Source: a virus. Taken from it: 61,373 bases of DNA. How positions within the stretch are numbered: the first letter of the stretch is position 1; each line of letters begins with the position of its first letter. A program made the position numbers and the translations under genes. The stretch lies in UHGV virus genome UHGV-1597594; one strand, written 5' to 3'. This document shows positions 4,438-60,702 of the stretch, piece after piece. Below the pieces are notes generated by a model. It searched no databases, was not told where the DNA came from, and was given only the letters and a program-made list of their open reading frames with translations.

Positions 4438-4459
4438 AAGTAGTTTATTTGTTTTGATT

Positions 4460-11383: not shown

Positions 11384-11589
11384 CTTATTTATGATTTGAT
11401 GTCTTGTATTTATATTATATGTTGATATTGTACAACGCTAAGTGTCATTTTGCACTGTCGCCACCAATTTTTATTGATGGTGTTGCAAACAATGCAAGCA
11501 AACACCAGCCACTTTTAGTGACTGCACAAGCAACTGCTATTGCAGCAAAGAAGCTTGCATAAATGATTGCTGCAGCAAGCCAACTTGTT

Positions 11590-13007: not shown

Positions 13008-13382
13008 CTATTCGAAATCTGCATCATCTACATTTTCATTAGGGTCATAGATAAGCCATACAAATGCTGCACAGCCAAGTATGAATAAGCCTCCGCCAAT
13101 GATTGTCGTAAAAACCGAACCAATCCAATGCTTCATAATATCACCGAGCGGATTCAATGTTTCATAGCCAATCATAAATGCGACAAATACAACTATTATT
13201 GCTGCTATTGCTTTGTTTGTGGTGTTTCGTTTTATTGTTGCCATTGTAGTAGAGGTTTGTTGTGTTCTGTATATTATGTTCGAATATATGAGGACATATA
13301 TTATATATAGATATATTATACAACAACAACACAATTTTTGCACACTTTTATAAACCAAAATTTCACAAAAATGCAAACACAA
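13008..13382 (-). CDS. small membrane protein (true start probably an internal Met near 13247)
   Basis: Hydrophobic stretches AIAAIIVVFVAFMIGY and IGGGLFILGCAAFVWLIY; the N-terminal 45 aa of the track ORF are low-complexity and overlap the plus-strand gene. Confidence 0.45.
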   Translation of the reverse strand: MCLHFCEILVYKSVQKLCCCCIIYLYIIYVLIYSNIIYRTQQTSTTMATIKRNTTNKAIAAIIVVFVAFMIGYETLNPLGDIMKHWIGSVFTTIIGGGLFILGCAAFVWLIYDPNENVDDADFE

Positions 13383-26819: not shown

Positions 26820-26909
26820 TGTTGTAGAGGTTTTATATTATATATGATTATATAATACAACAGTTGTGCAAATTTTGCACAACTGTTGTCAATAAAATGC
26901 AATTTTTGT

Positions 26910-27968
26910 TTATTGCTTCAAGCCTGTGAACAGTTCATACTTGAATGCCGGCGCTGCTGCGTAATCCTCAAAGTAGAAGTCACCAATGTTGATGCTAGCA
27001 ATAGCGTCATCGACTGCTTTCTTGTAGCCTACGCGTTCAATTGTCTGCTTATCGCATTTACGCCAATATGTGCTGTGCATCATAAGTGTGGGTGATGCAG
27101 CATAGTCTACTGCAAGCTGTTGTTTTGCAGTGTCAATGTGATGTTCATAGATGTGCACATCATTGCCAGTCCAAATGAACTCTCTTGCCACACAGTTAGT
27201 CAATGTTGCAACAATATGTGTAAGCAATGCATATGATGCGATATTGATGGGCACACCAAGACACATGTCACAGCTACGTTGAGTAAGCGCACAGTCAAGC
27301 CACATGCTTGGTACTTGAGCAGAATCAAGGCATTCTGCAGAGCCATCATGCACAAGCATGCTATCATTAGCAATCTGAATTCGTTCTTCAAGAGTCATTG
27401 GCTGACAATTGAACTGAAACAGCATATGACATGGCGGCAATGCCATCTGAGACATTTGCGCAGGATTCCATGCAGACACGACTTTGTAGCGGCCAGTTGG
27501 ATTGATGACAATGTCTTTAATGCAAGTTGCAAGTTGGTCAAATCCACTGTCATTGAAGTTGCGCCACTGATACCCATAGATAGGTCCGCAATCACCATAC
27601 TCAGGCTTGCTGAATTTTGTGTTATGCAGTTCTGTGCACCAAGTTTCAAAGTCGACATCTTCACCTGGATGCAGTTTACGCCAATGACGATATGCATCCT
27701 GATGCCAGAACTTTGTAATGCCAAGCGTGTCAAGCGTTTTTACATTTGTATCACCTGACATAAACCACAGAAGTTCTCCAATGACACCCTTGACAAACAT
27801 TCTCTTAGATGTTAACAGTGGAAAGCCTTTACGCAAATCAAATCGCATTGATTCTACGAACAGTGACTTTGTGCGAGGCATGTTTTCACGAGCAGGCTCC
27901 TTAAATCTGCCATGCTCAATAACATTGTTAAGTACTCTCAAGTACTCAGTGTCGTGTTTGATATTCAT
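26910..27968 (-). CDS. thyA: thymidylate synthase (ThyA family, uracil-type active site)
   Basis: ATG at 27968. ALPPCHMLFQF (catalytic Cys motif) and QRSCDMCLGVPINIASYALLTHIVA, retaining the Asn of PxNIAS that specifies dUMP in ThyA. 352 aa, with a ~40-aa insertion relative to bacterial ThyA. Confidence 0.8.
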   Translation of the reverse strand: MNIKHDTEYLRVLNNVIEHGRFKEPARENMPRTKSLFVESMRFDLRKGFPLLTSKRMFVKGVIGELLWFMSGDTNVKTLDTLGITKFWHQDAYRHWRKLHPGEDVDFETWCTELHNTKFSKPEYGDCGPIYGYQWRNFNDSGFDQLATCIKDIVINPTGRYKVVSAWNPAQMSQMALPPCHMLFQFNCQPMTLEERIQIANDSMLVHDGSAECLDSAQVPSMWLDCALTQRSCDMCLGVPINIASYALLTHIVATLTNCVAREFIWTGNDVHIYEHHIDTAKQQLAVDYAASPTLMMHSTYWRKCDKQTIERVGYKKAVDDAIASINIGDFYFEDYAAAPAFKYELFTGLKQ

Positions 27969-28655: not shown

Positions 28656-30533
28656 TCAAAAGCCTGCAAAGAAATCTGCATCAGCAGCATCTTGCTGCGG
28701 TGTTGACTCTTGTTCAATCACAAATCGACTGTGCAACTTTTGATTATGTTTTATGTATGGCATAATGCGCCGGATTGATTCGTCAATGACAAAAGTTTCA
28801 CACCAGTCATTTGCATGTCGAATGCCTCGACCAACTGACTGCACAAAGCTTTGATAACACTTATTGCGATACCAGCTTTCGTGATTTGCAGCCTTTGTTT
28901 TGACTACGATATCACCAAGTGACTGCCAAGGTAATTTTGCAACAATTTGACATCTACAACGATTGTCTGGTAAGTCAACGCCTTCAGTAATGCTAAAGCC
29001 TACAAGTACGTAGTTAGTGCCATCAGTAAGCATTGCAAGCTTATTTTGTTTGTCTTCAGCATTGACATATGTCAGCATTCTGCGTTTGTGCTTGCTGTTA
29101 TTGATGATATAGTTTGCAATGTCTCGTGTTGATGTATGTATGATGCAATTGCAGTCATGCGTGTCAAGAATGCTGTCAATTTTCTCGACAAGTCGAGGCA
29201 TATTTGCTGCTTTGTTTTTGTAACTCAATGACAATGCAGGTCTGCATAGTACAATGGGTGATTTGCTAAAATCCCAATCAGGCTCCATATAGAATGCCAC
29301 GTAGTTTTTGATGCCATTGAGTGTAGCAAATGTGTCAATATCACCAATTGTCGCTGACATCCACAATTGCGCATGCGTAGCATCACTATGATGCACCAGT
29401 GTATTTGCAAGAAGTTCGTCATTGACACATTTGAATTGCAAGCTGTTTGTTGCAGCATCAAGTACTACAAGCATGTCACCAGGTGATTGTTCAGTTGCAT
29501 CAAGCATTGTAATGATTGAATATGACAACGTATCACAGCTGGCAACAAAGCGAATGAACGCTTTCTCAAATTGACCAAGTTGTTTACCAGAATCCTGAAG
29601 TTCACTTAGCTTTTCATATGCAGTATGCAAAAAGTCTACAAGTTCTGACAACTGCTGTGCAAGCACTCTTGCTTCTGCTCGCATTGTTGCAATGTCATAT
29701 TGTGTTGTTGCAAGCTTAATGACTGCTTTGACTTGTGCAAACACATTGTTGCGAAGTTCTACATATTTGTTCTGATTTTCAAGAGTCATGATACCTGCAA
29801 TCAGTGACTCGGCCTTTGTGCAATTCTGAATGAATCGAGGACCAATTGACGTGTCAAGAAAGCCTGACAAAATGTCATCAATTTTATGACACTCATCGAA
29901 TATCGTCAATTCACGAGGCCCAAATAAGTTTTTGACGCAATTAACTTGTATCAGCCAGTATGCATAGTTAAGCACAGTGCAATTTGCTGCAGCAGCCTTT
30001 TGACGAGTCTGCAAATATGCGCATTTAGGTCCGCATGGCAATGCAAGAGCTTTCTTTGATGACAGACCATCTTGCTGACATTTACCCATGCTGAATGGCA
30101 GCCCATTGACATGACAAATGTAATTGTCTCGACCTTTGAGCATTACACAACTTCTGAATGCTGAAGTAGTTGTGTCTGCTTTAGCATTGTTGTCGTACAA
30201 ATATTGCTGAATGAACTTGTCATACTGGTCTTGCAGCAGTTTATCAGAAGTCAGCACGTATGACTTAAAGAACGTCGCGCAAAACATCGCAACCACAGAT
30301 TTTCCCGTTCCAGTCGCTCCCTGCAATATGACATTTTGCCCATTTGCAATTGCTCGAATAATGTCGATGATTAGATGACGCTGAGTTGCATCAAAACGCG
30401 CTTGGTCCCACTTGCATGTCTTTGATTGCGCAAGATATGCTGAGAATTTATCAATATGTGCTACAATAAGCTCATCAAGTTCTTGCTGAGATTGCTCTTC
30501 TGTCTTGTGTTCTACTGACGTTAGTCTACCCAT
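28656..30533 (-). CDS. DinG/Rad3-like superfamily-2 DNA helicase
   Basis: ATG at 30533. Walker A GATGTGKS, DECH box (LTIFDECHKID), four-Cys cluster between them (C..C..C..C) as in the Fe-S domain of DinG/XPD helicases. Confidence 0.8.
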   Translation of the reverse strand: MGRLTSVEHKTEEQSQQELDELIVAHIDKFSAYLAQSKTCKWDQARFDATQRHLIIDIIRAIANGQNVILQGATGTGKSVVAMFCATFFKSYVLTSDKLLQDQYDKFIQQYLYDNNAKADTTTSAFRSCVMLKGRDNYICHVNGLPFSMGKCQQDGLSSKKALALPCGPKCAYLQTRQKAAAANCTVLNYAYWLIQVNCVKNLFGPRELTIFDECHKIDDILSGFLDTSIGPRFIQNCTKAESLIAGIMTLENQNKYVELRNNVFAQVKAVIKLATTQYDIATMRAEARVLAQQLSELVDFLHTAYEKLSELQDSGKQLGQFEKAFIRFVASCDTLSYSIITMLDATEQSPGDMLVVLDAATNSLQFKCVNDELLANTLVHHSDATHAQLWMSATIGDIDTFATLNGIKNYVAFYMEPDWDFSKSPIVLCRPALSLSYKNKAANMPRLVEKIDSILDTHDCNCIIHTSTRDIANYIINNSKHKRRMLTYVNAEDKQNKLAMLTDGTNYVLVGFSITEGVDLPDNRCRCQIVAKLPWQSLGDIVVKTKAANHESWYRNKCYQSFVQSVGRGIRHANDWCETFVIDESIRRIMPYIKHNQKLHSRFVIEQESTPQQDAADADFFAGF

Positions 30534-30553: not shown

Positions 30554-30648
30554 TTTGTAAAGATATAATACTACAAACAGCACACATTTGCACTTTGACA
30601 TAACTGATTGAGTATCAATCAATTATGAGTTTATAAAAGTTTTTCAAA

Positions 30649-31166: not shown

Positions 31167-32048
31167 CTATCGTTTGAATTTGATGAAGTGTTCAGCATCA
31201 AGGCCCTCGAATACATACGGGTCAAGAGTTTCCCAGAAGTTTGAGTATGTCGTTGTCTTTGCAATGCTTGTTTGCTTTGACAAGTTCATATTTGGGTAGC
31301 CAAGCATTGCATAGTGTCGCTCATATATGTGCATTGACGTCGCATTATGCACATATGCGCCAAGCTTAAGACCAAGTTCATTTGCGACAAGTTCTTGCAA
31401 CAAAGTGAATGCAAACTGGTCGTTACAGAAGCCCCAAATGACATCATTGCTTCGCATGTATGTTGTCAAGTACAGCTTATCACCACGAACATTAAAGACA
31501 AGATTCAATGTGCATGGCATGTCTTTGCCAGTGTAGTTTGCATATTGTGGCTCATAAATGCTAATAACTGCTCGTCTTGTGCATTCATGATTTCGCAAAC
31601 GTTCAATGACATCTGCAATCTGCTTATGCCAAATTGCACCATACTGCGAATTGACATTGACATCATCATCACTGAACTGCTTCCAGCGAGGCAAATAACG
31701 TTCAATGCATTCAACTGCAGGATTGGCTGTCATGTACCATGCAAATTCTGCTGCAGCATTGAGCTTTTTCCATGGTCGTACATCAATCTTGATTTGTCGC
31801 TGTGAAGGGTCCTGAATAACTACAGACACATTCAGCAATTCTTTTGTTCGAGTCACTGTTTGTGCATTGTTGCCCTTTGATTCTACAAACTCACCTCTAC
31901 AATGAAGTTCATACAAAATTGAGCGAAATGCTTCTGTTGCAGTGTTTTCAATGATTGTCGTCTGTTGATAACATAAATTTGACGACAATGATTCAGCATC
32001 ATTGTACTTTATGCTGTCATTGTTATAAGGTGAATTTTTTGTGTGCAT
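31167..32048 (-). CDS. ThyA-family pyrimidine hydroxymethylase-like enzyme (candidate dCMP hydroxymethylase)
   Basis: ATG at 32048. MPCTLNLVF (catalytic Cys region) and YMRSNDVIWGFCNDQFAFTLL align gap-free with ThyA RSCDVFLGLPFNIASYALL; Asp replaces the specificity Asn. Confidence 0.7.
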   Translation of the reverse strand: MHTKNSPYNNDSIKYNDAESLSSNLCYQQTTIIENTATEAFRSILYELHCRGEFVESKGNNAQTVTRTKELLNVSVVIQDPSQRQIKIDVRPWKKLNAAAEFAWYMTANPAVECIERYLPRWKQFSDDDVNVNSQYGAIWHKQIADVIERLRNHECTRRAVISIYEPQYANYTGKDMPCTLNLVFNVRGDKLYLTTYMRSNDVIWGFCNDQFAFTLLQELVANELGLKLGAYVHNATSMHIYERHYAMLGYPNMNLSKQTSIAKTTTYSNFWETLDPYVFEGLDAEHFIKFKR

Positions 32049-33531: not shown

Positions 33532-36500
33532 TTAACAAATTGATGACGTGCCATCAGTATTTGCTACAACTGTCAATGCACTATCAAACTCATCTTGTTG
33601 CAATACATGGTCAACTATGAGTGTTTTGCGAATTGCAGAAAGTTTGGTAAGCAATTGCATCAGCACTTGCTGATAATTGATATTGTTGACATCATGCTCA
33701 GCGCCAACAATCTGCCCATTGCTAAGCTTGCCACTGATTTCATCAATGAGCAAGATGTTGCCAACTTTGTTTAAGCGTTGAGTCAAAATGAGATGCACGA
33801 TTGCAAGACCTGCGAAAGTCCCTTCCATGCCAGACATTTGACTTACGCTTCTAATTGACTTCGAACCCATCAAGTCAATCATCTTCAGCACATTGTTGTC
33901 ATTGATGTCAAAGAACACTCGGTAGTTCAATGAATCCAGCAAATCATTGAGCTGTACATTCAATGATGTTGCAATTGCTGCAAAGACATATGAAACTAAG
34001 CCTCGTTTGCTTGTGCACTGCTTATATGCATTGTACACCAAGTTTGCAATGTTCCACTTTTTAGAAGCTTGCAAATCTTTCTTGAGAGCTTCAATTCGCA
34101 CATTGTTTGCTGACAAGTCTGCTTGCATTGTTGCAATTTCTGCATTGATGCTTAGCAGTTTTGAGTTTGCTTCAGTTTCATGCTGCTTAGCATCATCAAT
34201 GTCGACTTGCAATGCAGCATTTGCTGCAATATGCTGCTGAGTTTGCTGCGCATGTTCAAGTGCAAATGCTGCAGCAGTCTTATCAATCTCAAGTTGTTTA
34301 AGCGCAGACTCATATGTCGCTTTCTTGTCATACTCTATTTGAGCAATTTCAAGTTCAGCATTTATTGCAGCCAGTTCTGATTCTACTGCAGATTTTGATT
34401 GCAATACATCTTGCTTTGCTTGTTCAGCTTTACGTTTGATGTCTGCAAGTTGATTTGTGATATCTGCAATTTGTGTTTTGACTGCTTCGACTTCAAGCAA
34501 TGTTGCTGCAGTAGCTATTGGTTGTGCAATGAATGCGTCTAAGTCTCTTTGCGCATTGACTACAGTTCTCTGCAAATCATTGAGCTTTTCTGCATGCATA
34601 TCATATGCAGCTTTATGTGCTGGATTCAGCGCAGCAATAATTGCATTTGAATCTGTGACATCAATGACTGTTGCTTGCAATTGCTCAATTTCATACTTCA
34701 AATTGCCAATTTTGACAACATTCTCATTGAATTGCTCTGTTTTTTGTGCACATTCTTGACGCAACTTAGCAAGCTCAGTTGACAGCCACAGCTTGTATGC
34801 TTGTCCTGTGCCAGATGTCAAGTCATTTGTACATACAGGGCATTTGTCGTTTTCAAGTTGCTTTTGCTTGTCTATAACATTGTCGATGTTTGTTTTTGCA
34901 GCAGATACTTCTGTTCTAAGCGCATTTTGAACAGTGTTGATGTCTTCAATTTGCTTTTGCAAAGCATCTATTTTTGCCCGAGTGTTTGCATTGTACGACT
35001 TGCCAAGATTTATCAGCACAGAATCAATGTGCTGCTTTGCTGCATCATATGCAAGCTTTGATTCATCAAGCTTTGTTCTGTACAATAACTCTGCATGCGC
35101 AACTTCTTTCTGCACTTTTGCAGATAGCTCATTCTGTTTTGTAAGCAGCTCAGCATATGTATTGTGCAGCTGTGAGCCAGATGCTATGACATTTGTGTAT
35201 GCTGCATTAGCTTCATTGTCAATATTAGTGAGTTGTTGCTCAATCTGCGCTTTTACTGTTTGCAATTTAGACATGTCTTGCAATGCAAGTGCAGCAATGT
35301 CAAGCTCAACTTTGCGAATCTTTGCAACGATGCTATCGATATTTGCTGTTGCATCTTCTACAGTTAAAATATCTGCAGAAATTTGATGCAGTCTTTTTGA
35401 GAGCTCTTCTACTTTTGCACGTGCTTTTGTAAGTTTTGCAGACCACTCTTTTTGATTATCTTGTCGTAACTGCAAAGAGTCATTGAGTTCATTGCAAGTT
35501 GTATTGAGAGACTCAAGTTCTGCTTTTATTGCGACATCAGTCAACGCAGGTTTGCTAAGACCATCAAACAATGCAGCTTTTGCAGCATCATTAGAATTGC
35601 CGAGCTGCACAAATGTATTGATGCCAAGAGTATCAAGCAACCAGTCATTCAATGAATTTGAGTCCATTGCAATGATTTGGTCAAGCAATGTCTGATTGAT
35701 GCATACATATCGCGACAATTCCCATATAGAGCCAAAGATTGCATATAGTGTGTCTTTGATTTCATGCTGCGGCACTGCATAGTCATCTGACAATCGCACA
35801 AGTTGCACAGTCTCATTAACTGTTGACACATTGTCTCGCCATGAGCCATCTGCATTTATTCGAGAACCTCGTTTGAATTTGCGCTCAAGTGTTCGAGTCA
35901 ATTTGTAATGCACATTTTGACCCGCAACTACATGCACAAACACACAAGAAGCTTCAAGCTTGTCATATGACTCATTGTCAATCAACTTGTCATTGAAGTA
36001 CGTCAAAGCATTCTGCTTTGTTGCTGCAGAAGACTGTCCAGCGTCAATGAAGCCAGTCAATAGCCATTTAATAAGCCTAAAGATTGTTGTCTTGCCATTG
36101 CCATTGTTGCCTCTAACTTGTGTAAGTTGCGCAAGATTGTCAAAGCTAACATCAACATCTTTCAATGCCATGAACTGATTTGCTTTAACATTTTGAATGA
36201 CATATTTTGCAACTTCAGTGTCAAAAGACAATTTATCAATTTGTTCATCAATCAATGACTTGAACATGTCAACAAACTGCTGAGCGTCTTCAGTAGCAAC
36301 TATAGCATTGCGTTCAATGTACGCATTGACCCAGTCAAGTGCAGCATCTTTAAGCCATTCAGCAGTTTGAACTTTTTGCAGCAAATTGTCGCCATTTGCA
36401 TCTACAGCATTGATTGAATCAATGACAGCAGAATCATACAGAATGTCAATTGCGGCAACAACGTATGAACTTACAAGATTCTGTGCAATGCGCTCAACAA

Positions 36501-37458
36501 TACCAGACAGTTCGGGCTTTGTGACCTTTGACTTGATTTTGATTTTGTTGATGCGACCAGGATTGATGAGTGCAATCTTATCTGTTTTGATGTCATTGTC
36601 AATTGTGATTGTATGATAATGCACAAGCTGCTCAAGTGGATGCCACTCTGCACCAATTCGCTTGTTGTCAATATCGATGTCAAGCAAGTTGTAGCCATGT
36701 TCTGCAGTGCCCTGTTGCATTGCAGTGTCATTCAACAAATAGTCGCCTTCACCAAAATCTCTGACAATTGGCGAGCCGCAGTATGTTAATGTCTTGGTGC
36801 CAGAAGTCCATATTGCATGTTTGTGAATATCACCCATTGCAACAAAGTTGCTGTGAAACTGTGTTGCATCTATACGACTGTCATTGTCACCACGAACAAT
36901 ACAATCATCAAAGTTGACACAATTCTTTACTGGGTCATGGAACAGCTCAATGACACACATTGATGACAATGCTGCAATCTGCGATTCATCAAGTGATGCC
37001 CAAGGCGAATATGTGCCACCAGACCACTTCTCATTTTGAGCCCACACAGCAGCAGCAAAACCAGGTGCAAGCAATTCAACTCTTGAGCTATTGATGTATT
37101 TGATTCGCTTATCATCAATTGCAGTCACAAGCTTATCAATACTGTCTGTCCACTGCATTTGTGAGCCATCACCAGCATCAAATGTGTTATCACGTTGCTT
37201 CAAATCATGATTGCCTGCAGTGATAACGATTTGAAGCTTGTCATTGACTTCAAGCATGCCTTTGAGCAACTTAACAAACAGCGACTCTTCAAGTGAATTG
37301 CTGTTCCAATGCTCAAACACATCACCAACAATAAACACTAGCTCAACTGACTTTGCTTTGTCAATCAGTTGTTTGTTGATATACTCGTATTCTACAAAAC
37401 GTCGTAAATGCCCTTGTCGAACATTATATTGAATGTCTGCTATGTGAAGTGCTTTCAT
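33532..37458 (-). CDS. fused SbcD/Mre11-like phosphoesterase and SbcC/Rad50-like ATPase (single 1308-aa polypeptide)
   Basis: ATG at 37458. N-terminal HIADIQYN, VGDVFEHW, ITAGNHD (calcineurin-like phosphoesterase motifs); then Walker A GNNGNGKTT, a long coiled-coil region and C-terminal ILLIDEISGKL (Walker B/D-loop). Confidence 0.8.
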   Translation of the reverse strand: MKALHIADIQYNVRQGHLRRFVEYEYINKQLIDKAKSVELVFIVGDVFEHWNSNSLEESLFVKLLKGMLEVNDKLQIVITAGNHDLKQRDNTFDAGDGSQMQWTDSIDKLVTAIDDKRIKYINSSRVELLAPGFAAAVWAQNEKWSGGTYSPWASLDESQIAALSSMCVIELFHDPVKNCVNFDDCIVRGDNDSRIDATQFHSNFVAMGDIHKHAIWTSGTKTLTYCGSPIVRDFGEGDYLLNDTAMQQGTAEHGYNLLDIDIDNKRIGAEWHPLEQLVHYHTITIDNDIKTDKIALINPGRINKIKIKSKVTKPELSGIVERIAQNLVSSYVVAAIDILYDSAVIDSINAVDANGDNLLQKVQTAEWLKDAALDWVNAYIERNAIVATEDAQQFVDMFKSLIDEQIDKLSFDTEVAKYVIQNVKANQFMALKDVDVSFDNLAQLTQVRGNNGNGKTTIFRLIKWLLTGFIDAGQSSAATKQNALTYFNDKLIDNESYDKLEASCVFVHVVAGQNVHYKLTRTLERKFKRGSRINADGSWRDNVSTVNETVQLVRLSDDYAVPQHEIKDTLYAIFGSIWELSRYVCINQTLLDQIIAMDSNSLNDWLLDTLGINTFVQLGNSNDAAKAALFDGLSKPALTDVAIKAELESLNTTCNELNDSLQLRQDNQKEWSAKLTKARAKVEELSKRLHQISADILTVEDATANIDSIVAKIRKVELDIAALALQDMSKLQTVKAQIEQQLTNIDNEANAAYTNVIASGSQLHNTYAELLTKQNELSAKVQKEVAHAELLYRTKLDESKLAYDAAKQHIDSVLINLGKSYNANTRAKIDALQKQIEDINTVQNALRTEVSAAKTNIDNVIDKQKQLENDKCPVCTNDLTSGTGQAYKLWLSTELAKLRQECAQKTEQFNENVVKIGNLKYEIEQLQATVIDVTDSNAIIAALNPAHKAAYDMHAEKLNDLQRTVVNAQRDLDAFIAQPIATAATLLEVEAVKTQIADITNQLADIKRKAEQAKQDVLQSKSAVESELAAINAELEIAQIEYDKKATYESALKQLEIDKTAAAFALEHAQQTQQHIAANAALQVDIDDAKQHETEANSKLLSINAEIATMQADLSANNVRIEALKKDLQASKKWNIANLVYNAYKQCTSKRGLVSYVFAAIATSLNVQLNDLLDSLNYRVFFDINDNNVLKMIDLMGSKSIRSVSQMSGMEGTFAGLAIVHLILTQRLNKVGNILLIDEISGKLSNGQIVGAEHDVNNINYQQVLMQLLTKLSAIRKTLIVDHVLQQDEFDSALTVVANTDGTSSIC

Positions 37459-37480
37459 ATTCTAAATGAGATTTAGATTA

Positions 37481-37550
37481 TATGTTGATATTGTACAACA
37501 TGCAAAATGCACTTGCATTTTGATGCAAAGTACAGTGTACACAACATGCA
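37481..37550 (-). promoter_or_regulatory. two tandem promoter-like motifs upstream of the SbcCD-like gene; the second is a diverged copy of the 44-bp repeat unit at 1-132
   Basis: tatatgttgatattgtacaacatgcaaaatgcac and tgatgcaaagtacagtgtacacaacatgca (28/30 identical to positions 1-30 of the repeat unit). Confidence 0.45.
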
Positions 37551-37555
37551 AAATG

Positions 37556-37903
37556 TCATTTTGCAAGCATTTTGCTGATTGCATCTATCACAGTTTCACT
37601 GAGCAAGTAGTAGACAACGCTTATCAGCAATGATATCAGTACTGCAGCTGTGATAAATTGCAACGCATTCATAATTGCACGCACAAATGTTATTTGCGTG
37701 TTGTATGCAAGCACTATGCAGCATAACATAATGATGATACACCACACTACAATTGCATATGCAGGCAGCAATGAATTTGTCCATATGCAGTACAATGCAG
37801 TAGTTAGCATCAAAAATGCTATTGCTCTGATGACTGACACAATGATGTCTATGTAGGGCTTCATTGCACGTAAATGAACTCTTGGCTTATGCGGTTTCAT
37901 CAT
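37556..37903 (-). CDS. small membrane protein
   Basis: 115-aa ORF, mostly hydrophobic. Confidence 0.5.
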   Translation of the reverse strand: MMKPHKPRVHLRAMKPYIDIIVSVIRAIAFLMLTTALYCIWTNSLLPAYAIVVWCIIIMLCCIVLAYNTQITFVRAIMNALQFITAAVLISLLISVVYYLLSETVIDAISKMLAK

Positions 37904-39132
37904 GACTTTATGTACAATTCTGCAAGTTGTCTGGTGTACAGTCGTGGATTATGATATGCTTTCCAATATGCAGTAGACTTTATTGCAGCAAGAATCTCAT
38001 CATAATGTTTGACTGCTTCTGCTACAACTTCATCAAGCACGCTCAAATCTTCTACACTGACAAGCAACCATTTTTCTACAATATCAATGAACTCCTGATT
38101 GCAATTGAAGCCATACTTGTAGTTGCAAGTGTCAAGTACAAGTGGAATGCAATCATTTGTCAATGCTTCAAAAAATCTACGAAGACTGAAACAATTCTCA
38201 TCATATGATGGAATGCTTAATGTAAACTTGGCAGTCTTGATGAGTTGCAAATACTCTTCATATGGAATCAGAGGACCATTGTGCTTCCACTGATTGTTAT
38301 GTCGTCTTGTTGTGTACTTGAACAAAAACTTTGAACTGTCAAGCTCACAAAGATGGTCCATGCGTAAAATGTAGTTATAGCGGTCTCTTCTATCAGGCCA
38401 ACTGTCAGTCATTGCAAACACAAAGTCTCTTTGCTTGTCACATTTTGCTGACATGCCTCTATGCTGACACATGCAATACCAATATTGCTGTGATGGACTG
38501 AACTCGAATTTTGAGTGATGTTCGCTTCCATCTTTGCATTGTTGAACGTAAATATTGTCAGGCACAAAGTGAAAATAGAAGTGTCGAATTTGCAAGCCGT
38601 CAATGTAGTCAAGCTTATGCTGCAATGGGTCTTCACAGAAATTGTAACATTGAATGTGCTTTACTGCTGCATACTCAGCAACTATGAATGTGCACATCCA
38701 TTGCAATGCAATATCTTCACTTTTCAAAAAGTCTACAAGCGGTTCGTTTGGATGCGCTTTGCATTCATTGAACATTTTGTACCACTTGCACTGCTCCATA
38801 TCGTACTTTGAGACTGTATTGCCATTAAAGAATGACACAGTGTCAATTTTGAATGCATCAAGCTGTTTATGCACAATGTCAAGTGCTTGTGCATATGTGA
38901 TTGTCTCATCAGACATTATCTGCGCAAACTTGATTGGATATGCATGCAAATTTGCGATAGTGTCTGCTGACATTTTACGCTGTGTATGATAATCGACATA
39001 CAAAAACTGACATTTATCTGTAAGCAATTCAAGCATTGCTACAGATTTCCATCGAATTGCTTGAAAGAAATTGAAGTGCGCAGTTTGAAAAATGAGATGC
39101 GTAGGCTTGTCAGAATGAGTCAAAGTTTGCAT
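37900..39132 (-). CDS. GT-B-fold glycosyltransferase-like protein (paralog X1)
   Basis: ATG at 39132 (track start 39138 is TTG). C-terminal PSYDENCFSLRRFFEALTNDCIPLV fits the GT-B/GT4 signature PSxxExxxxxxxxEAxxxGxPxV; EDPLQHKLDYIDG and SPSQQYWY are shared with CDS 42133-43689. Confidence 0.6.
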   Translation of the reverse strand: MQTLTHSDKPTHLIFQTAHFNFFQAIRWKSVAMLELLTDKCQFLYVDYHTQRKMSADTIANLHAYPIKFAQIMSDETITYAQALDIVHKQLDAFKIDTVSFFNGNTVSKYDMEQCKWYKMFNECKAHPNEPLVDFLKSEDIALQWMCTFIVAEYAAVKHIQCYNFCEDPLQHKLDYIDGLQIRHFYFHFVPDNIYVQQCKDGSEHHSKFEFSPSQQYWYCMCQHRGMSAKCDKQRDFVFAMTDSWPDRRDRYNYILRMDHLCELDSSKFLFKYTTRRHNNQWKHNGPLIPYEEYLQLIKTAKFTLSIPSYDENCFSLRRFFEALTNDCIPLVLDTCNYKYGFNCNQEFIDIVEKWLLVSVEDLSVLDEVVAEAVKHYDEILAAIKSTAYWKAYHNPRLYTRQLAELYIKS

Positions 39133-40295
39133 GGACAAATGTCGCAGTTATGTTGATGTTTGTGTTTATTTATGAAGTCATATGTCACTGCAAAAAAGTG
39201 CTTTGCAATGTCATATCGAGTTTTCAAATATGACGCTTGGCGTTCACAAAACGCTGCATAAATGTCTGGGTGTTGTTTGAATGCAGCAATGCGTTGCTGT
39301 ACTTGTTCTGCAGAATGTACATATGACACTTTGCTCAAATATGCATCATCTGCAAATAATCGTCTGTCTTTGTCAACTGCGCAATCAACAAAAGTTGCAA
39401 TTCGTGCAACAATGGCTTCACCAACACGATTTGGCATCAACCCATATTGCTCATATTGTTGGTCACCAATAGCAATGTGTGCTGCTGCATATGACATTGC
39501 ATATGGCACACTATAAAATGGCACGCTAAAATCAAATGAGCAATTTGACTGTAGTAGTTGCGCTTGTGCATCAGACAATCTACTTGTCAAGTTGCCTGTA
39601 TGTTTGTGCTCACCAAGAAAACTTGAGCGACAACCTGAATCTACATAGTATCGAATGACTTTGTTTATGCGACTGTCAGATAGCATATGCCAATCTCTTG
39701 TAGCATATATCAAGTCTACTGTTTTTGCACCAATATGACGAGGCTCTATCGCAACATTGCTGTACGTTGGTAGCATGAACAATGGCAGCCATTTGACATT
39801 GTTGAACACTGAATGCTCATTTGACAAATTCATGCACTGGCTAAGTTCAAGTACTGGCTCATCATACACGCCATGTAGCTCAACTCTGCCTGCATGCACA
39901 AAGTTGACACGCTTAAATGGGAATCGCATGTCAGTACAAATTGTCATTCTTGCTGCAGTAGACATTCGCCACATAGCATGCAGCTTAACAACTGCTTCTG
40001 CTTGAGGTCGAGGCAACATATTTAGCAAATCAATCCAGCCACCCCACAAAATCCAAACATCATTTGAACAGATGTTGAATTGCAAACTCAATATGTCTTC
40101 TACTGTTGCAGCAATGATGTCATGCCCATTGATGCTTGCAAGGTGCTTTCGTTGATTTGCAATAAGAATGACTTGGCTGAATGGAGACTCTGGAAATGAC
40201 ACAAGCGCTTTTGCAAACAACACGGGTTCTTGCGACACCAAGTTGTTTGAGTATGGGTCGATTATGCAATCAAGCTTGTGTATGAAGAGTCTCAT
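39120..40295 (-). CDS. hypothetical protein (paralog Y1 of 43686-44855)
   Basis: 391 aa; shares AHIAIGDQQYEQYGLMPNRVGEAIV with LVVGDSLYVQAGLLPNRWVEGVL of CDS 43686-44855. Confidence 0.55.
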   Translation of the reverse strand: MRLFIHKLDCIIDPYSNNLVSQEPVLFAKALVSFPESPFSQVILIANQRKHLASINGHDIIAATVEDILSLQFNICSNDVWILWGGWIDLLNMLPRPQAEAVVKLHAMWRMSTAARMTICTDMRFPFKRVNFVHAGRVELHGVYDEPVLELSQCMNLSNEHSVFNNVKWLPLFMLPTYSNVAIEPRHIGAKTVDLIYATRDWHMLSDSRINKVIRYYVDSGCRSSFLGEHKHTGNLTSRLSDAQAQLLQSNCSFDFSVPFYSVPYAMSYAAAHIAIGDQQYEQYGLMPNRVGEAIVARIATFVDCAVDKDRRLFADDAYLSKVSYVHSAEQVQQRIAAFKQHPDIYAAFCERQASYLKTRYDIAKHFFAVTYDFINKHKHQHNCDICPCKL

Positions 40296-41026: not shown

Positions 41027-41514
41027 ATAACGTTATATCATATCTACACACAAAGCAAATGCTACTGCAAGTGCAGCCATAATTGCATATATGACTATTG
41101 ATGCAGTATAATCTGATTCAGGATTCCACTTATCAGGTGTGTTAAGCTTGTGATACTTGTCTCGTCTCATCTTGAGTCAAAAAATGATGGCTGCTGCTAC
41201 ATTTTGTGAAATCATGTGCAGCAGCCATCTGGCAGGTTTCTTGCTTTGTAAAGCTTGGATAGAGGATGGATTTTATATGTTGATATTGTACAACATATAT
41301 TGTCATTTTGCACAGTCTGATGCAATCAAATCTTTGTCAAAACATTCATCTATAATGTCTTCAATAAGATACGCTTCGACATTGTTAAGCTTCAAGATAT
41401 CTACGAGTTTTGCTTTGATATCGCAAGCTAATGCAGATTCAACTGTATGCAATATGACTGATGATGCGACATGCTTGTCTGTCATCATTTGTAATTGCTG
41501 TGGTGTTACTCTAC

Positions 41515-42132: not shown

Positions 42133-43689
42133 TCATTGCACTTCTACGAATGGCTCTTTCAACACAAAGCTGTCACCATTGCAACATGCGGCTGAGCAAT
42201 CGTCTGCATCAAGTGCACATGACATATCAGACTTACAGAACTTGCAATATGAACATGACCATGCATGACTCATAAAGTCGTTTGCTTCACAAATTACACA
42301 GCGCTCATGTGAAAGTGTATTGTCGCAATTGTCACAAGACTTTTTGATTGGCACATCTTTATTGATATATGCAAGATGCAATGCAATATCATACACAAAG
42401 TCGCCCGTATATTGCTGAATGAAATCAGTGTGCCACAGTTCTTTCAATAATTGCGCATGTCTGTATGGCTGAACAATGTCTTCAAGATGCTGCAAGTCAT
42501 CATCGCTAACCATGAGCTTCTTAATGACAAACTGTTTGAACTGTGGCCATCTGTCAAACATATAGAGTTTGCATGAGTTGTGCACAAGTGGAACACAGCC
42601 AAGCACAATGCTTTCACAGAATCTACGCAAACTAAAACAGTTTGCATCATATGACGGCACAATCAATGTGAATCTGCTATGCTTGATGAGTTCAAGGTAT
42701 GTGTCATATGGCAGTAGCTTATCTGACAATTGCTGTTGTTGTTTGTCTCTGCTGAAAAATCTGAACACAATGCCTTTGTCAATTGCATCTTGATTGTGTA
42801 GATGCATGAGTTTGCTGATGAGTTCTGTGCGTTCAGTTTTGTCTCGCCAAGTATTCGTCAATGCAAATGCAAAATTTAGTCGCTTGTCATCAAATGTCGC
42901 TTCAATGTCATTCCAAGTTTTGCCATGCAAATACCAGTATTGCTGTGATGGACACCATCCATAGTATGCGACAGCATCTTGTTCTGCTGTAACGTCGTAC
43001 ACATATGCAGAATTGTATTCAAGACCAAGCTTTTTGACATTGTTGCAGTCATGAAAATACCAATGCTGCACTTTGAATATCTTTGATGCACTGAATGCGC
43101 TTTCATATGGCCCTGAATAGCGATAGTCAATGTAATTGAGCTTGTGCTGCAATGGGTCTTCGACAAAGTTGTTTATGACTGTGCCTTGTTGTTTGTCCTT
43201 AGTCTTGCGAGCATTCAATGCAACATTGTATTGCATGATGACTGACAGCATCTCATACACTACATACATGAGTGCTTTGTAGACTGAGCCTGCTGCGTCA
43301 ATTAGTGGCAAATCACGTTTGACTGATGTAGCACCAAATGTCTTGCAATATGCAGAAAATGTGTCAAGTTCTGCTTGCTGAAATGAATTGCATGCACCAT
43401 TGAATATGTTGAATGTTGCAATGTAGCTCATATTGCAAGACGTCATTGACATATCAAGACGCTTCATAATGTCGACAATGCGACATTGAGCAAAATCTGA
43501 CACATCAACATATTTGACATGATGGCATGATGTAGTCAAGCCATCTGCGACATCTTTCATCTGTGGCACAAAGCCTATAACAATGAACAAGTCATCTTTG
43601 TTTGCTCGTTCAAACATTGCTGCACTTTTCCAAGTCAATGAATTGAAAAAGTCTATGTAGCCAGTTTGAGTGATGATATGTGTTCTCAT
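42133..43689 (-). CDS. GT-B-fold glycosyltransferase-like protein (paralog X2) with Cys-rich C-terminal extension
   Basis: ATG at 43689. PSYDANCFSLRRFCESIVLGCVPLV signature; about 80 extra C-terminal residues with 14 Cys. Confidence 0.6.
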   Translation of the reverse strand: MRTHIITQTGYIDFFNSLTWKSAAMFERANKDDLFIVIGFVPQMKDVADGLTTSCHHVKYVDVSDFAQCRIVDIMKRLDMSMTSCNMSYIATFNIFNGACNSFQQAELDTFSAYCKTFGATSVKRDLPLIDAAGSVYKALMYVVYEMLSVIMQYNVALNARKTKDKQQGTVINNFVEDPLQHKLNYIDYRYSGPYESAFSASKIFKVQHWYFHDCNNVKKLGLEYNSAYVYDVTAEQDAVAYYGWCPSQQYWYLHGKTWNDIEATFDDKRLNFAFALTNTWRDKTERTELISKLMHLHNQDAIDKGIVFRFFSRDKQQQQLSDKLLPYDTYLELIKHSRFTLIVPSYDANCFSLRRFCESIVLGCVPLVHNSCKLYMFDRWPQFKQFVIKKLMVSDDDLQHLEDIVQPYRHAQLLKELWHTDFIQQYTGDFVYDIALHLAYINKDVPIKKSCDNCDNTLSHERCVICEANDFMSHAWSCSYCKFCKSDMSCALDADDCSAACCNGDSFVLKEPFVEVQ

Positions 43690-44855
43690 GATTTGAATGT
43701 TTGTTCAAGAATAGTGTAACACTGCACAATCATTGCTGCAAGAGCTTTTTGCTGTGCTTGTTTGCAATCATCAAAATTTGTGGGCGCGGTGCGTACGCGT
43801 GTTTTGCTATTAAGTGTTGCAAATGTCGCGTAGTCATTGAAGTCTACGATATCAGCAAATATGGCGCTTGGCTCATAATCTACAAGTATATTGCAGCAAT
43901 TTGCAAGTACGCCTTCAACCCATCGATTTGGCAGCAAGCCTGCTTGCACATACAATGAATCACCAACTACAAGATTGTACGCGGACCTCGACATTACATG
44001 AGGCATTGCATCATATGCGACTTTGTATTTAAGTGTAAAGTTTGGCGCTGCTGATTTAACCGCAGACAAAATTGTGTCATCAAGATATGATGTTATGAGA
44101 CATGTGTCGCACATATGTATGACAAATTGTTCAATCACACTTCTACGATACTCGTCAAGATATGTGAAACCTGCACAACTTGCACAGCATGCATATTGCT
44201 GCTTTATGTCAGCAAAGCTAAGCACATGAGCTTCAATTGCATTTTGCATCGTTGCTTGTCGTTTGAGCAATCTTGGCTCTTTAATGCATTGAAGCTTCAA
44301 TGCATTGACTGCTGCAATGATTTGCAATGGCACAAACACGCATTGAGACTCATCAAGCCAAGCATACTTGAGATTTTTATGTTGACACAGATGCGTAATG
44401 TAGTCTTTTTGCGATTCTAAGTACTCTTTGTAATTGTGCAATCGCTTTGTCAATGTGCACTCTTTACCAAAATCAAATCGCAAATCAGTTGTTAGCGTAA
44501 ATTTGCGAACATTTGACAAACACCATGCTTTGAACGCATTCCACAGAACATCTTGCTGAAATTCTGAGCAATGCTCAAGAGCAGCCTTTGAGCCCTGCCA
44601 GAATATTGCGCAATCATCTGATTTTGCACACTTCAGCATATCTTGCCATGCATGTATGTTATTGATAATATGCACGTTATCATAATACACAAGCTCTTCA
44701 AGTATTGCATGCTTGTTCTCAGGGTCGCCAAACACGTACACTGCATCAAACATTGTTTGAACAAACCCTGCAAATGCAATGGGTTCTGTATGTTTAAGAT
44801 GCTGTATGTCTGAACGCACACATGTGTCAAATTTCAAAATGAAGAGTTTGCTCAT
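43686..44855 (-). CDS. hypothetical protein (paralog Y2)
   Basis: ATG at 44855, preceded by the promoter-like box at 44875-44895; homologous to CDS 39120-40295. Confidence 0.55.
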   Translation of the reverse strand: MSKLFILKFDTCVRSDIQHLKHTEPIAFAGFVQTMFDAVYVFGDPENKHAILEELVYYDNVHIINNIHAWQDMLKCAKSDDCAIFWQGSKAALEHCSEFQQDVLWNAFKAWCLSNVRKFTLTTDLRFDFGKECTLTKRLHNYKEYLESQKDYITHLCQHKNLKYAWLDESQCVFVPLQIIAAVNALKLQCIKEPRLLKRQATMQNAIEAHVLSFADIKQQYACCASCAGFTYLDEYRRSVIEQFVIHMCDTCLITSYLDDTILSAVKSAAPNFTLKYKVAYDAMPHVMSRSAYNLVVGDSLYVQAGLLPNRWVEGVLANCCNILVDYEPSAIFADIVDFNDYATFATLNSKTRVRTAPTNFDDCKQAQQKALAAMIVQCYTILEQTFKS

Positions 44856-46945: not shown

Positions 46946-47032
46946 ATTGTTTTATCATATATGAATATATTGTACAACATAAAGCGCATACTTGCACTTT
47001 GTGTTGCTAAAAATATCGTCATTGTACACAAA

Positions 47033-52206: not shown

Positions 52207-53337
52207 CTACTTGAGCCCGTTGATGAATGCTTCAGTTTCAGCATCCATCGTTGCTGCTGCAGGTGCTGCTGCCGGAGCTGCTGCAGGTGCAGGCTCTGCT
52301 GCAGGCGCTGAAGCTGCTGCAAACGGGTCAATGGCTGTCTGAGCTGCTGGTGCAGTAGCAGGCGCAGCTGCCTGAGCTGTTGCAGGTGCAGGCTGAGTAG
52401 TCTGTGCCTGCTGAGCTGCTGACGGATTGATGACAATGTCAGGCCAGATATCCGACGCATCCTTGTAGTTAGCAAGGCGCATCTTAACCTGACGCTTAAT
52501 GTCATCAGAAGCTTCATGGTAACCCCACTCCTTTTCGACATTCGGGTACTCCTTGAGCATGTCGACAATCTGCTGCATGATTTGCTGCTTGTATGCAGGG
52601 TCAGTGTCATACTTCGCCTGATCAACAAGGGTGCCATCTGCAAGCAGCATCGACGATACGTTGGGCGAAATCGTCGAAGTCTCGTAGTCACGCATTTCAA
52701 CGCCATTGACGTCTTTCAGCGTAATCTTCAAGAGAATGTCGTGGCCCTTAACGGGATGGAACATGTCCATAGGCTGAGCGCCCATCTGGATGTCTTCGTC
52801 GGTTGGCTTCATTGCAGACATGCAACGCTTGTAGATGGCTGCAGGGAGTCGATATGGAAGTACTTTCCCAACGTTCTCAGTGTGCACTGAATCAGCTTTG
52901 ATTTGAACGAGGCAAGTGTACTGACTCTGCATACTGAACTCTCGCTTTGCAAGCGCTTCCTGCTGAGCATCCTTGGTATTGATGAGTTCCCAGTAGAATG
53001 CTGAAATGGGACACCATCCATAGGGTTTCATCAAATTTTCCGGATTTTCAGGATGCGGATTCGGTGAGCTCGGCGAATTGTAGCGGAAGCCCTGATTAGC
53101 GCCAGTCCCAAACCAGTAGTAACGGACGATTGAAATCGGCACCGCGGGGTCATTCAAGTTCGGCAGAATTCGAATGACTGCTCGATAGATTCGGTCCTTA
53201 CTTTCGGAAGGCTTAGGATTAAAAAACTCAGGTCCTGCAGAACGTTCCGGCTTAGCAAAGCTTGCTACATTGTCCGGCTGGACATCAAAGATTGACAGCG
53301 GCTGATTACCGGTCTGTCCATTTTCAATTTGTGACAT
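52207..53337 (-). CDS. hypothetical protein with Ala/Pro-rich low-complexity C-terminal region
   Basis: ATG at 53337. C-terminal ~70 aa are (A/P/T/Q)-rich (..PAPATAQAAAPATAPAAQ..APAAAPAAAPAAA..). Confidence 0.6.
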   Translation of the reverse strand: MSQIENGQTGNQPLSIFDVQPDNVASFAKPERSAGPEFFNPKPSESKDRIYRAVIRILPNLNDPAVPISIVRYYWFGTGANQGFRYNSPSSPNPHPENPENLMKPYGWCPISAFYWELINTKDAQQEALAKREFSMQSQYTCLVQIKADSVHTENVGKVLPYRLPAAIYKRCMSAMKPTDEDIQMGAQPMDMFHPVKGHDILLKITLKDVNGVEMRDYETSTISPNVSSMLLADGTLVDQAKYDTDPAYKQQIMQQIVDMLKEYPNVEKEWGYHEASDDIKRQVKMRLANYKDASDIWPDIVINPSAAQQAQTTQPAPATAQAAAPATAPAAQTAIDPFAAASAPAAEPAPAAAPAAAPAAATMDAETEAFINGLK

Positions 53338-53488: not shown

Positions 53489-54610
53489 TTATCTTGCATG
53501 ACCGCAATCGTACACTGCAACATAACCAGCATCAATCATCTCTTGCTCATCTTGTCCGCAGTCTTCAATATGCTCTTTTGTCTTCAAATGACACCAGTGT
53601 TTGCGAATTGTTGACATGTCATCTGACAACTGTGGATTGAGTGCGAAGTCTGTTGAGTTTATTGATAGCTTTGCTAAATGCATGCCAACAATTGACACAA
53701 CGTCGTTTAAGTTATACCAGTCAAAAATTGTTATGCATATGTAGCCATGTTTGAGAGCAAGTTGAGTCTTATCAAAATGATAATGCATATGCATTGGCAC
53801 ATTATTATGTGTTCTATTATTTAGATATGCAAAACTGTACGTGCTATTGTGCGATATTGTTGGGCTAATTTCTATAACTATGTCATTATATCGCAAATCA
53901 TACAATCTGCCACCTATTAAATGCGAATATTCAAAGTTAATGCCAAGAGCATGTAATATCTTATCATGCACAAATAACTCAAGCTTTGAACATGGCTTTG
54001 ACTTTGAGCGCACGCTAAAATGGCATACAGCGCCATACAAGTCTGCTAAACGTTCACGAATCAAAGTCAAATTGCCAAACGCGTTGCCCCATCGTGCACG
54101 TTTAGTTTTACACATTTTAGCAACATTGCCATTTGCATAACCATAACGTTCTAAATTTGTTGCACAGATTTTTGAGCGGTCACCCCATGCATTGCCATAT
54201 TTACGTTTTTTGGTATCAATTGCCTTTGCTTTGTTGCCATAGCCATTGCCAAATCGCTGTACTTTAGTTGCAGTAATTTTTTCTACATTGCCATTTGCGT
54301 GGCCATAACGTTTTAAGTTTGTTGCTTGCATTTTTGCAATCATTGCATCAACGTCATTATTTGCACGTCTGGTATTGATTGCTTGATTTTTTAGCGCAGT
54401 GCATTTCATCGCATTTTCAAACCCATACTTTCTTAAGCACCCAATTTTGTAGTTGTACTTTCGTGCAATTTCACTATGAGCTGTCTTATGTTTGCCTAAT
54501 CTAACATTCTCTGTTGCCCTTAACAATTCATCTCTTTCAGCTTCAAGTTCTGCAATTCTTTTCTCAATAGCTGCGCCAGTTAATGGCGTATCTTGCTTGT
54601 AGCGACTCAT
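53489..54610 (-). CDS. homing-endonuclease-like protein, paralog of 4600-5562
   Basis: ATG at 54610. N-terminal coiled coil (IEKRIAELEAERDELL), five ~18-aa repeats (ATNLKRYGHANGNVEKI and variants), C-terminal YDLRYNDIVIEISPTISHNS...FALNPQ...KHW...YDCGHA shared with CDS 4600-5562. Confidence 0.6.
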   Translation of the reverse strand: MSRYKQDTPLTGAAIEKRIAELEAERDELLRATENVRLGKHKTAHSEIARKYNYKIGCLRKYGFENAMKCTALKNQAINTRRANNDVDAMIAKMQATNLKRYGHANGNVEKITATKVQRFGNGYGNKAKAIDTKKRKYGNAWGDRSKICATNLERYGYANGNVAKMCKTKRARWGNAFGNLTLIRERLADLYGAVCHFSVRSKSKPCSKLELFVHDKILHALGINFEYSHLIGGRLYDLRYNDIVIEISPTISHNSTYSFAYLNNRTHNNVPMHMHYHFDKTQLALKHGYICITIFDWYNLNDVVSIVGMHLAKLSINSTDFALNPQLSDDMSTIRKHWCHLKTKEHIEDCGQDEQEMIDAGYVAVYDCGHAR

Positions 54611-59217: not shown

Positions 59218-59382
59218 TGTTGTAGAGATTTTTGTGTACTATATTGATATATGATAATTGTACTACAAAAATCACAAATTTGCACTGATTTGATATATAA
59301 TATGTCAATAAATTTCACATACAAAAGTCTTTTCGCTTATGAAAACTACTCAACTCTGGTTTGAACGCCAGCAGTCAATCGC

Positions 59383-60237: not shown

Positions 60238-60702
60238 TCAAATACCAATGTATATTGCGTATTCTGATGTTTTGATATCATCAGCGTCAAATTCAATTTC
60301 ACCATAGTTTTCATCACCTTGTGTTGCTATGATATGTGTAGCAAGCTTAACTTCATCATAGTACAAATCATAGAACACTTGCGTGCCTTTGTAAATTGTG
60401 ATAGCTGTGTTATTATCATACAACACTGGCGTCACTGTTTTAACAGGACCAACTTCTTGTGGCAAGGCCCTATCAAGAAATGTCAGTCTAATTGGTGTAG
60501 TGTACCGAGTATAAATATGCACGGTGAACTGCTTTAACAGCTTTCTTTGTTGGAGGGCTTGTTGTGCCCCCCCCCCAGTTACGAGGGATTTGCATATGAA
60601 TTGAGTTTTTGAAGTGAGTTGAGTTTTGATGCAAGATGCAAAACAACTAAGATGTTGTTTTGATATGTACATATGGGCAGTCAAAATATATAAAACAAAC
60701 AA
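60238..60702 (-). CDS. hypothetical protein with G10 tract near the 5' end; N-terminal boundary unreliable
   Basis: GGG codons (VTGGGAQQ) are the 10-nt homopolymer at 60567-60576; the 42 aa upstream look non-protein-like; an ATG (atgcaaatccctcgtaactgg) just upstream of the tract is out of frame by one. Confidence 0.4.
   Translation of the reverse strand: MFVLYILTAHMYISKQHLSCFASCIKTQLTSKTQFICKSLVTGGGAQQALQQRKLLKQFTVHIYTRYTTPIRLTFLDRALPQEVGPVKTVTPVLYDNNTAITIYKGTQVFYDLYYDEVKLATHIIATQGDENYGEIEFDADDIKTSEYAIYIGI

Follow-up and report, generated by a model that had tools for sequence, protein, structure and literature searches.

A conserved single-chain Mre11-Rad50-type protein with a variant phosphoesterase motif, encoded in the replication module of a large phage

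A stretch of 61,373 nucleotides (nt) of UHGV virus genome UHGV-1597594, called the window below, contains a 1308-amino acid (aa) open reading frame (ORF) whose product resembles the SbcD/Mre11 nucleases in its first part and the SbcC/Rad50 ATPases in the rest. In phage T4 (gp47/gp46), in E. coli (SbcD/SbcC) and in archaea and eukaryotes (Mre11/Rad50) the two proteins are separate subunits. The locus raises the question of whether the long ORF is a true gene or two neighbouring genes joined by error and, if it is a true gene, what its product might do for the phage. The analysis reported here confirms the ORF as a genuine, conserved and new divergent member of a fusion class that was already described. 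It is likely that this large phage thereby makes its Mre11-Rad50 (SbcD-SbcC) enzyme as a single chain, probably devoted to ATP-gated resection of DNA ends for recombination-dependent replication and repair.

The ORF is uninterrupted, starts at an ATG and is encoded in the minus strand, a point absent from the initial annotation of this DNA, which had been made from the sequence without database searches. The N-terminus of the protein is well defined because the stop-to-stop frame opens just one codon upstream of the ATG, and the amino termini of its homologues coincide with it. The order proposed in that annotation, a nuclease-like part followed by an ATPase-like part within one ORF of 1308 aa, was borne out by domain searches, profile-to-PDB alignments, fold searches and two AlphaFold models, which are monomer fragments covering aa 1-440 and aa 340-1308. 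All the motifs that it named are present: HIADIQ (aa 5-10), GDVFEH (aa 45-50), GNHD (aa 82-85), Walker A, the coiled coil and Walker B. Its assignment of the first ~300 aa to the nuclease holds for the phosphoesterase half as such and needs adjustment in extent, the three named motifs lying within aa 1-85 while nuclease and capping region together span ~340 aa. Of the Pfam domains that it anticipated, Metallophos (aa 1-103, 27 bits for a cut-off of 21.5) and AAA_23 (aa 427-690, 43.8 bits for a cut-off of 27) pass, while SMC_N stays at 16.8 bits for a cut-off of 40.

The identity of the nuclease half is supported by profile and structure comparisons. A profile of the family, limited to the first 440 aa, matches E. 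coli and S. aureus SbcD and P. furiosus Mre11 with E values of 5e-14 to 1e-10, the sequence HlADiQ standing opposite HTSDWH of SbcD and GDIH opposite GHIH. A single-sequence phmmer search of the PDB gave marginal matches only (E >= 0.04), significant ones being obtained with profiles. The AlphaFold model of aa 1-440 has a mean predicted local distance difference test (pLDDT) score of 86.9, exceeding 90 across most of aa 1-250, and its top Foldseek matches in the PDB are all SbcD or Mre11 structures (7dog, 6s6v, 1ii7 and 4hd0, E ~1e-12). The target-normalised template modelling score is 0.57-0.69 for 7dog, E. coli SbcD 6s6v and P. furiosus Mre11 1ii7, and the nuclease plus capping structures 7dog and 1ii7 align with the model over 367-390 columns. 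The predicted structure has the nuclease and capping-domain fold of the Mre11/SbcD type. It continues into a linker region with helices at residues 343-351, 356-363, 366-383 and 389-407. The helix-loop-helix (HLH) found there is a candidate Rad50-binding domain which, likened to the HLH of T. maritima (PMC3175470), might dock on the coiled coil.

The second half features the complete set of ABC ATPase motifs, split between an N-lobe and a C-lobe as listed in Table 1, with a signature of the form SGM(E/Q) instead of SGGE/Q. Residues K456, S1209, G1210, D1239, E1240 and H1284, as well as the two cysteines C873 and C876 of the CPVC motif, are invariant in 20 sequences. The model of aa 340-1308 (pLDDT 82.1) places the first Rad50 strand at about aa 417, some 8-9 residues after the HLH of the linker, and predicts helices of the coiled coil over aa ~641-870 and ~884-1148, on either side of the CPVC loop. 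These arms of ~230 and ~265 residues may be compared with the T4 gp46 coiled coil, which is ~100 Å long (PMC7752040). The best PDB fold match of the Rad50 part is Chaetomium Rad50 7zr1 (E 4.5e-18), followed by SMC, MukB, JetC and LmuB; SMC proteins score much like 7zr1 in this Foldseek comparison. The full-length profile matches the Rad50 zinc-hook structures 6zff (E 5e-9) and 1l8d (E 7e-8), together with coiled-coil and SMC/Rad50 structures, while the Pfam Rad50_zn_hook model stays under its threshold (13 bits for a cut-off of 24.3). According to sequence and model alike, the coiled coil is long and antiparallel and carries a CxxC, the putative zinc hook, at its centre.

Table 1. Features of the Mre11-Rad50-type fusion gene, of its leader and of the promoter-like family (positions are those of the window)
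Feature	Residues (aa)	Position (nt)	Strand	Basis or remark
Mre11/SbcD-Rad50/SbcC fusion ORF	1-1308	33532..37458	minus	1308 aa plus stop
Mre11/SbcD-type phosphoesterase domain	1-250	36709..37458	minus	Pfam, profile vs PDB, model, Foldseek
Putative metal/catalytic residues of the nuclease domain	D8, Q10, D46, N83, H84, H174, D210, H212
Further nuclease motif ELFHD	171-175
Further nuclease motif GDIHKH	209-214
Beta-rich capping-type region	251-342	36433..36708	minus	strands 255-286 and beta-alpha-beta 303-341 (model)
Helical linker	343-410	36229..36432	minus	helix-loop-helix 366-383, 389-408; pLDDT 78-89
Rad50/SbcC ATPase N-lobe	421-632	35563..36198	minus	Pfam AAA_23, conserved residues, model
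Walker A GNNGNGKTT	450-458	36085-36111	minus	N452, G455 and K456 invariant
Q-loop candidate CINQTLL	586-592	35683-35703	minus
Ascending coiled-coil arm	633-872	34843..35562	minus	long helices in model; predicted irregular stretch at ~aa 689-732
Putative zinc hook CPVC	873-876	34831..34842	minus	C873 and C876 invariant in 20 sequences
Descending coiled-coil arm	877-1137	34048..34830	minus	model
Rad50/SbcC ATPase C-lobe	1138-1308	33535..34047	minus	invariant residues, model, Foldseek
Signature SGMEG	1209-1213	33820-33834	minus
Walker B ILLIDE	1235-1240	33739-33756	minus
H-loop IVDH	1281-1284	33607-33618	minus
21-nt stretch ATAATCTAAATCTCATTTAGA		37461..37481	minus	just before the ATG; identical before the XPD/DinG-like helicase gene 28656..30533
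Promoter-like element ATGCAA-N17-TACAAT		37490..37518	minus	-10 region holds the 8-bp palindrome TTGTACAA
Inverted repeat TTGCAT-caaa-ATGCAA		37513..37528	unassigned	overlaps the -35 position
Distal leader element		37521..37550		93% identical to the first 30 nt of the 44-nt unit at 1-142
Promoter-like family copies just upstream of ORFs		4513-4541, 11427-11455, 13315-13343, 26852-26880, 30565-30593, 37490-37518, 41285-41313, 46969-46997, 59257-59285
Tenth promoter-like copy		44682-44710		inside an ORF

Genes of the sbcD/sbcC type adjoin in one operon in T4 and in bacteria (PMC3175470) and one indel could in principle join them, which would make the long ORF an assembly or sequencing artefact created by a frameshift or a lost stop between adjacent sbcD-like and sbcC-like genes. 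The distribution of the protein argues strongly against such an origin. An identical 1308-aa protein is found on three contigs, whose sizes are 50-200 kb and which include a 108,260-bp scaffold of ENA ERZ28658723, and a search of 5.8 billion proteins yielded 19 full-length homologues with 97-18% identity, all of 1284-1401 aa. Across the junction (aa 343-430) these homologues align without frame breaks, and ordered helices are predicted there. An exhaustive profile search based on the N-terminal 440 aa gave 187 cluster representatives (50% identity) at E <= 1e-30; among the 150 listed nearly all have 1100-1480 aa, and the 147 full-length members, which also served for the census of active site residues described below, range from 1104 to 1484 aa with a median of 1326 aa. 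A CxxC near the middle of the protein, mostly its sole CxxC, is present in nearly all of the 147. The match to PHROG 35725 likewise runs from end to end, pairing aa 2-1304 with positions 8-1366 of the 1376-position profile (E 1.2e-113). Finally, a single gene of ~3.9 kb is annotated in six cultured and independently sequenced jumbo phages, PAU, pT24, PTm1, PTm5, MA9V-1 and MA9V-2; the corresponding products include gp288 of Sphingomonas phage PAU (1301 aa), gp019 of Tenacibaculum phage pT24 (1310 aa), gp075 of PTm1 and the product of ORF70 of Chryseobacterium phage MA9V-1. The artefact is effectively refuted by this body of evidence. A megablast comparison of the fusion gene with 50,697 phage records gave no match, the informative search being the one at the protein level.

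Shorter family matches, of 200-640 aa, were checked as possible unfused relatives and mostly look like fragments cut at contig ends; two of them, P0135 (417 aa, with a basic tail) and P0152 (409 aa), are possibly true stand-alone nucleases. In another homologue, P0159 (445 aa), the Walker A runs straight into an unrelated sequence that starts with a cysteine, GENQMGK|CVHPDTEITIEF, before the contig end cuts the protein. By its sequence this insert looks like an intein in the P-loop.

The novelty implied by the initial annotation does not stand. Fusions of Mre11 and Rad50 in the same order were described by Yoshida, Claverie and Ogata in 2011, an example being Mimivirus R555 with N-terminal Mre11 and C-terminal Rad50 in 1351 aa, and their homologues were found abundant in viral metagenome fractions, probably derived from phages (PMC3175470); the family to which the present protein belongs already exists as PHROG 35725. 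R555-type fusions and the present protein have in common a length of ~1300-1350 aa, the Mre11 part in first place, capping and HLH regions, which are kept in most fusions (PMC3175470), and a long coiled coil. In the T. maritima complex the Mre11 C-terminus is ~28 Å from the Rad50 N-terminus, a distance for which a linker of 9-12 residues is enough (PMC3175470). The linker of ~8-9 residues predicted here is close to the 9-12 residues predicted for fusions and compatible with the geometry of that complex. Unlike Mimivirus R555, the protein belongs to a tailed-phage lineage, is encoded in a phage replication module and is a PHROG member. The jumbo-phage proteins of PHROG 35725 are collinear with it over their full length (1301-1326 aa), share its motifs and are present in a single copy per genome, whereas their identity to it is 24-27% for those of cultured phages and the phage studied here is known from metagenome contigs. 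When the N-terminal model was compared with predicted viral structures, the fused proteins of pT24, PTm1 and PAU came first (E 1e-32 to 1e-29), followed by fusions of 1193-1389 aa from Mimiviridae and related giant viruses (E ~1e-17), namely those of Pyramimonas orientalis virus, Tupanvirus, Harvfovirus, Yasminevirus and Tetraselmis virus, and then by unfused phage SbcD/gp47 proteins. The position of the Mimiviridae fusions as next-best structural neighbours, together with an aspartate shared with R555 (see below), gives only indirect support to a possible common ancestry of the fusion with R555, as opposed to an independent fusion.

The product of the fusion gene is proposed to work along the lines known for Mre11-Rad50, SbcCD and T4 gp46/47 (PMC3175470, PMC7752040). 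On the model of the M2R2 complexes formed in T. maritima, E. coli and T4, two chains would pair through their nuclease domains, through ATP-engaged heads and through a Zn2+ held between their hooks, the HLH of each chain docking in cis. Binding and hydrolysis of ATP would control the entry of DNA ends, hairpins or blocked ends to the nuclease site, and the resected ends would serve the phage genome in recombination-dependent replication and in the repair of breaks. Fusion would fix a 1:1 stoichiometry and render the pair transferable as one gene. The ATP-gated end processing expected of such an enzyme would be the same as that of T4 gp47/gp46, E. coli SbcD/SbcC and archaeal or eukaryotic Mre11/Rad50, which have in common with the fusion both folds, the ATPase motifs, the zinc hook and most phosphoesterase motifs, and which differ from it, besides their separate subunits, by canonical DxH and GHxH motifs.

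This last difference, overlooked in the initial annotation, concerns two positions of the nuclease site. Motif I reads D8-I-Q10 instead of D-x-H, Q10 being aligned in the profile comparison with the second metal-ligand histidine of SbcD (DWH), and G209-D210-I211-H212 replaces G-H-x-H, with D210 opposite the first histidine of SbcD GHIH. Among the 147 full-length members position 10 is a glutamine in 138 and a histidine in 8, while position 210 is an aspartate in 137 and a histidine in 10. The two positions combine as Q/D in 128 members, Q/H in 10 and H/D in 8; H/H is found in none. Motifs II, III and IV are present as G45-D46, G82-N83-H84-D85 and the invariant H174, and residues D8, D46, N83, H84, H174 and H212 are kept in 146-147 of the 147. 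As judged from these sequences, the pattern is one of an active site under selection and not of decay. In R555 an aspartate (D242) likewise takes the place of His206 of P. furiosus Mre11 (PMC3175470) and corresponds to D210, whereas R555 keeps the DxH of motif I. The DxQ of motif I is specific to this phage clade, and the aspartate of motif V is common to it and R555.

The replaced histidines could be taken as the sign of a degenerate nuclease domain, a pseudo-enzyme, in a protein that solely tethers or senses DNA in the manner of Rad50 on a structural Mre11 scaffold. Both substituted residues do face metal-ligand or motif histidines of SbcD and Mre11, and no member combines histidines at the two sites. 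Such a loss of function is nevertheless very improbable: the near-complete invariance of the other catalytic and metal residues is what a selected active site would be expected to display, and Q/H and D/H alternate naturally inside the family. The side chains of glutamine and aspartate can moreover bind metals. The presence of the same aspartate in R555 (PMC3175470) points in the same direction. It is conceivable, if rather unlikely, that the tailed-phage branch has an altered di-metal site, perhaps with a changed metal preference or nuclease chemistry, such as Mg2+ over Mn2+ or a tolerance of phage DNA hypermodified by the products of the neighbouring thymidylate-synthase-like and glycosyltransferase genes. 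In a further interpretation the protein would be primarily a weapon in conflicts and not a factor of replication or recombination, a Lamassu or SMC-like nuclease machine that destroys unmodified DNA of the host or of competitors and spares the hypermodified DNA of the phage. PADLOC models for LmuB cover aa 435-1295 with E 1.7e-16, the LmuB structure 9hqx is among the fold matches and the adjoining thymidylate-synthase-like and glycosyltransferase-like genes suggest a pathway for DNA base hypermodification. This role is nonetheless improbable. The likeness to LmuB is that of a generic Rad50/SMC-type ATPase head with a coiled coil, for which Rad50 is the best fold match; Lamassu LmuB and SMC-like defence systems are host-encoded, lack an Mre11 domain and rely on a separate effector, while the nuclease is here of Mre11 type and fused, unlike the LmuA effector. 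The gene is also a conserved core gene of the phage lineage placed in a replication module, and SbcCD homologues are near-universal in jumbo phages (PMC7824862). The defence-system lead given by the PADLOC matches was dropped as generic Rad50/SMC homology, the locus being a phage replication module.

The reading of the protein as a single-chain Mre11-Rad50 enzyme has some points against it. The NCBIfam cut-offs for SbcD (TIGR00619 sbcd, 36.6 bits for a cut-off of 77.65) and for Rad50 (equivalogs, 48.5 bits for a cut-off of 1000) are not reached, so that by sequence the fusion would belong to both superfamilies as a distant relative, without being orthologous to the cellular proteins. Because two canonical histidine ligands are replaced by Q10 and D210, its activity and metal preference cannot be assumed from the cellular proteins. 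No experimental or biochemical study of any natural Mre11-Rad50 fusion was found in the literature searched. The window also represents just 61 kb from a contig that measures at least 108 kb, and a separate second Mre11-Rad50 pair could be encoded elsewhere in the genome; no second Mre11-like or Rad50-like ORF was found within the 61-kb window, even at E 10, and the related complete phage genomes have one locus each.

The genomic surroundings fit a function in DNA metabolism of the phage. The fusion gene is the first gene downstream of its promoter-like element, in a module for replication and nucleotide modification, and the substantial ORFs near it are all encoded in the minus strand. Its downstream neighbours are two ORFs of 110 and 365 aa, a thymidylate-synthase-like gene, an ORF of 118 aa and the XPD/DinG-like helicase gene (28656..30533); glycosyltransferase-like genes are found upstream. 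This gene order is conserved around a homologue of 34% identity on a 153-kb contig. Elsewhere the window codes for parts of a DNA polymerase, a polymerase-exonuclease-like protein and another helicase.

The leader of the fusion gene was also analysed. The initial annotation had described it as a shared palindromic leader; the shared upstream element is real and is best read as a promoter with the palindrome in its -10 region. The pattern [AG]TGCAA-N16-18-TA[CT][AT]AT occurs ten times in the window in the sense of the genes, always with a spacer of 17 nt, and never on the opposite strand, compared with 0.42 copies on average and 2 at most in shuffled sequence. The family has the consensus GTGCAA-N17-TACAAT and nine of its ten copies are located just upstream of ORFs (Table 1). 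A generic sigma-70 scan picks the same element in front of the fusion gene. By its sequence the leader would be a promoter that several phage genes have in common and that may include operator elements, the inverted repeat that overlaps the -35 position being a possible operator. A Shine-Dalgarno sequence is not evident upstream of the fusion gene or of the other genes of the window.

Several other repeats are present. The 44-nt unit to which the distal leader element is related, TGATGCAAAGTACGATGTACACAACATGCATTGCATATTTGCAA, is present in three tandem copies at window 1-142, the window beginning inside the repeat; this unit may be regulatory or origin-like. Two nearby copies of TTTTGCATGTTGT are found in the leader of the fusion gene, both exact, and two in the leader (4438-4599) of the gene for the C-terminal part of the polymerase, where one of them has a single mismatch and the other is exact. 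Allowing two mismatches, the 13-mer TTTTGCATGTTGT is not enriched in the window (21 matches for 15 expected).

Some features of the neighbouring genes deserve mention. The two thymidylate-synthase-like and three glycosyltransferase-like genes are located at 31167-32048, 26910-27968, 37900-39138, 39120-40295 and 42133-43689, all in the minus strand. The glycosyltransferase-like products are of the GT47/Exostosin-like type or belong to a beta-glucosyltransferase PHROG, and the arrangement around the fusion gene is kept in a distant relative. The glycosyltransferase genes at 37900-39138 and 42133-43689 share a 99-nt stretch of 71% identity. The DNA polymerase is apparently split between a 501-aa ORF (7798-9303, minus) and a 430-aa ORF (3145-4437, minus) separated by five ORFs, which correspond to positions 111-489 and 504-842, respectively, of the 856 positions of PHROG 262 (DNA polymerase). 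The same module thus features a split polymerase and a fused Mre11-Rad50 protein.

Further away, 4701-5019 and 53587-53905 share two stretches of 70-76 nt that are 73-74% identical and both offset by 48,886 nt, a similarity that indicates that the ORFs 4600-5562 and 53489-54610 are paralogues. The segment 52240-52394, within the ORF 52207-53337 (minus), is made of degenerate GCTGCTGCAGGTGC-type repeats with a local GC content of up to 0.44, so that the encoded protein would have a low-complexity segment. A run of ten C (gtgaCCCCCCCCCCagtt) at ~60730-60745, upstream of the ORF 60238-60702, may be sequencing-prone or phase-variable.

For the family as a whole, the analysis provides a correct functional name. 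The genes of the cultured phages are labelled 'metallo-phosphoesterase' or 'DNA repair exonuclease' in databases, the Rad50 half being unmentioned, and the MA9V-1 paper lists the gene under such a name alone (PMC10537231). The fusion class has been known since 2011 and the role of the protein is deduced from homology; the moderately interesting part is the DxQ/GDxH variant, in a group of natural fusions for which the literature searched holds no biochemistry. A covalent Mre11-Rad50 protein might be a convenient single-gene model of the complex, with its stoichiometry fixed and with cultured hosts for MA9V-1 and PTm1. The DxQ/GDxH motifs are a specific and testable variation on a very well-studied active site and, if the altered di-metal chemistry considered above were true, this protein would be a functionally distinct variant of Mre11, beyond a mere fusion.

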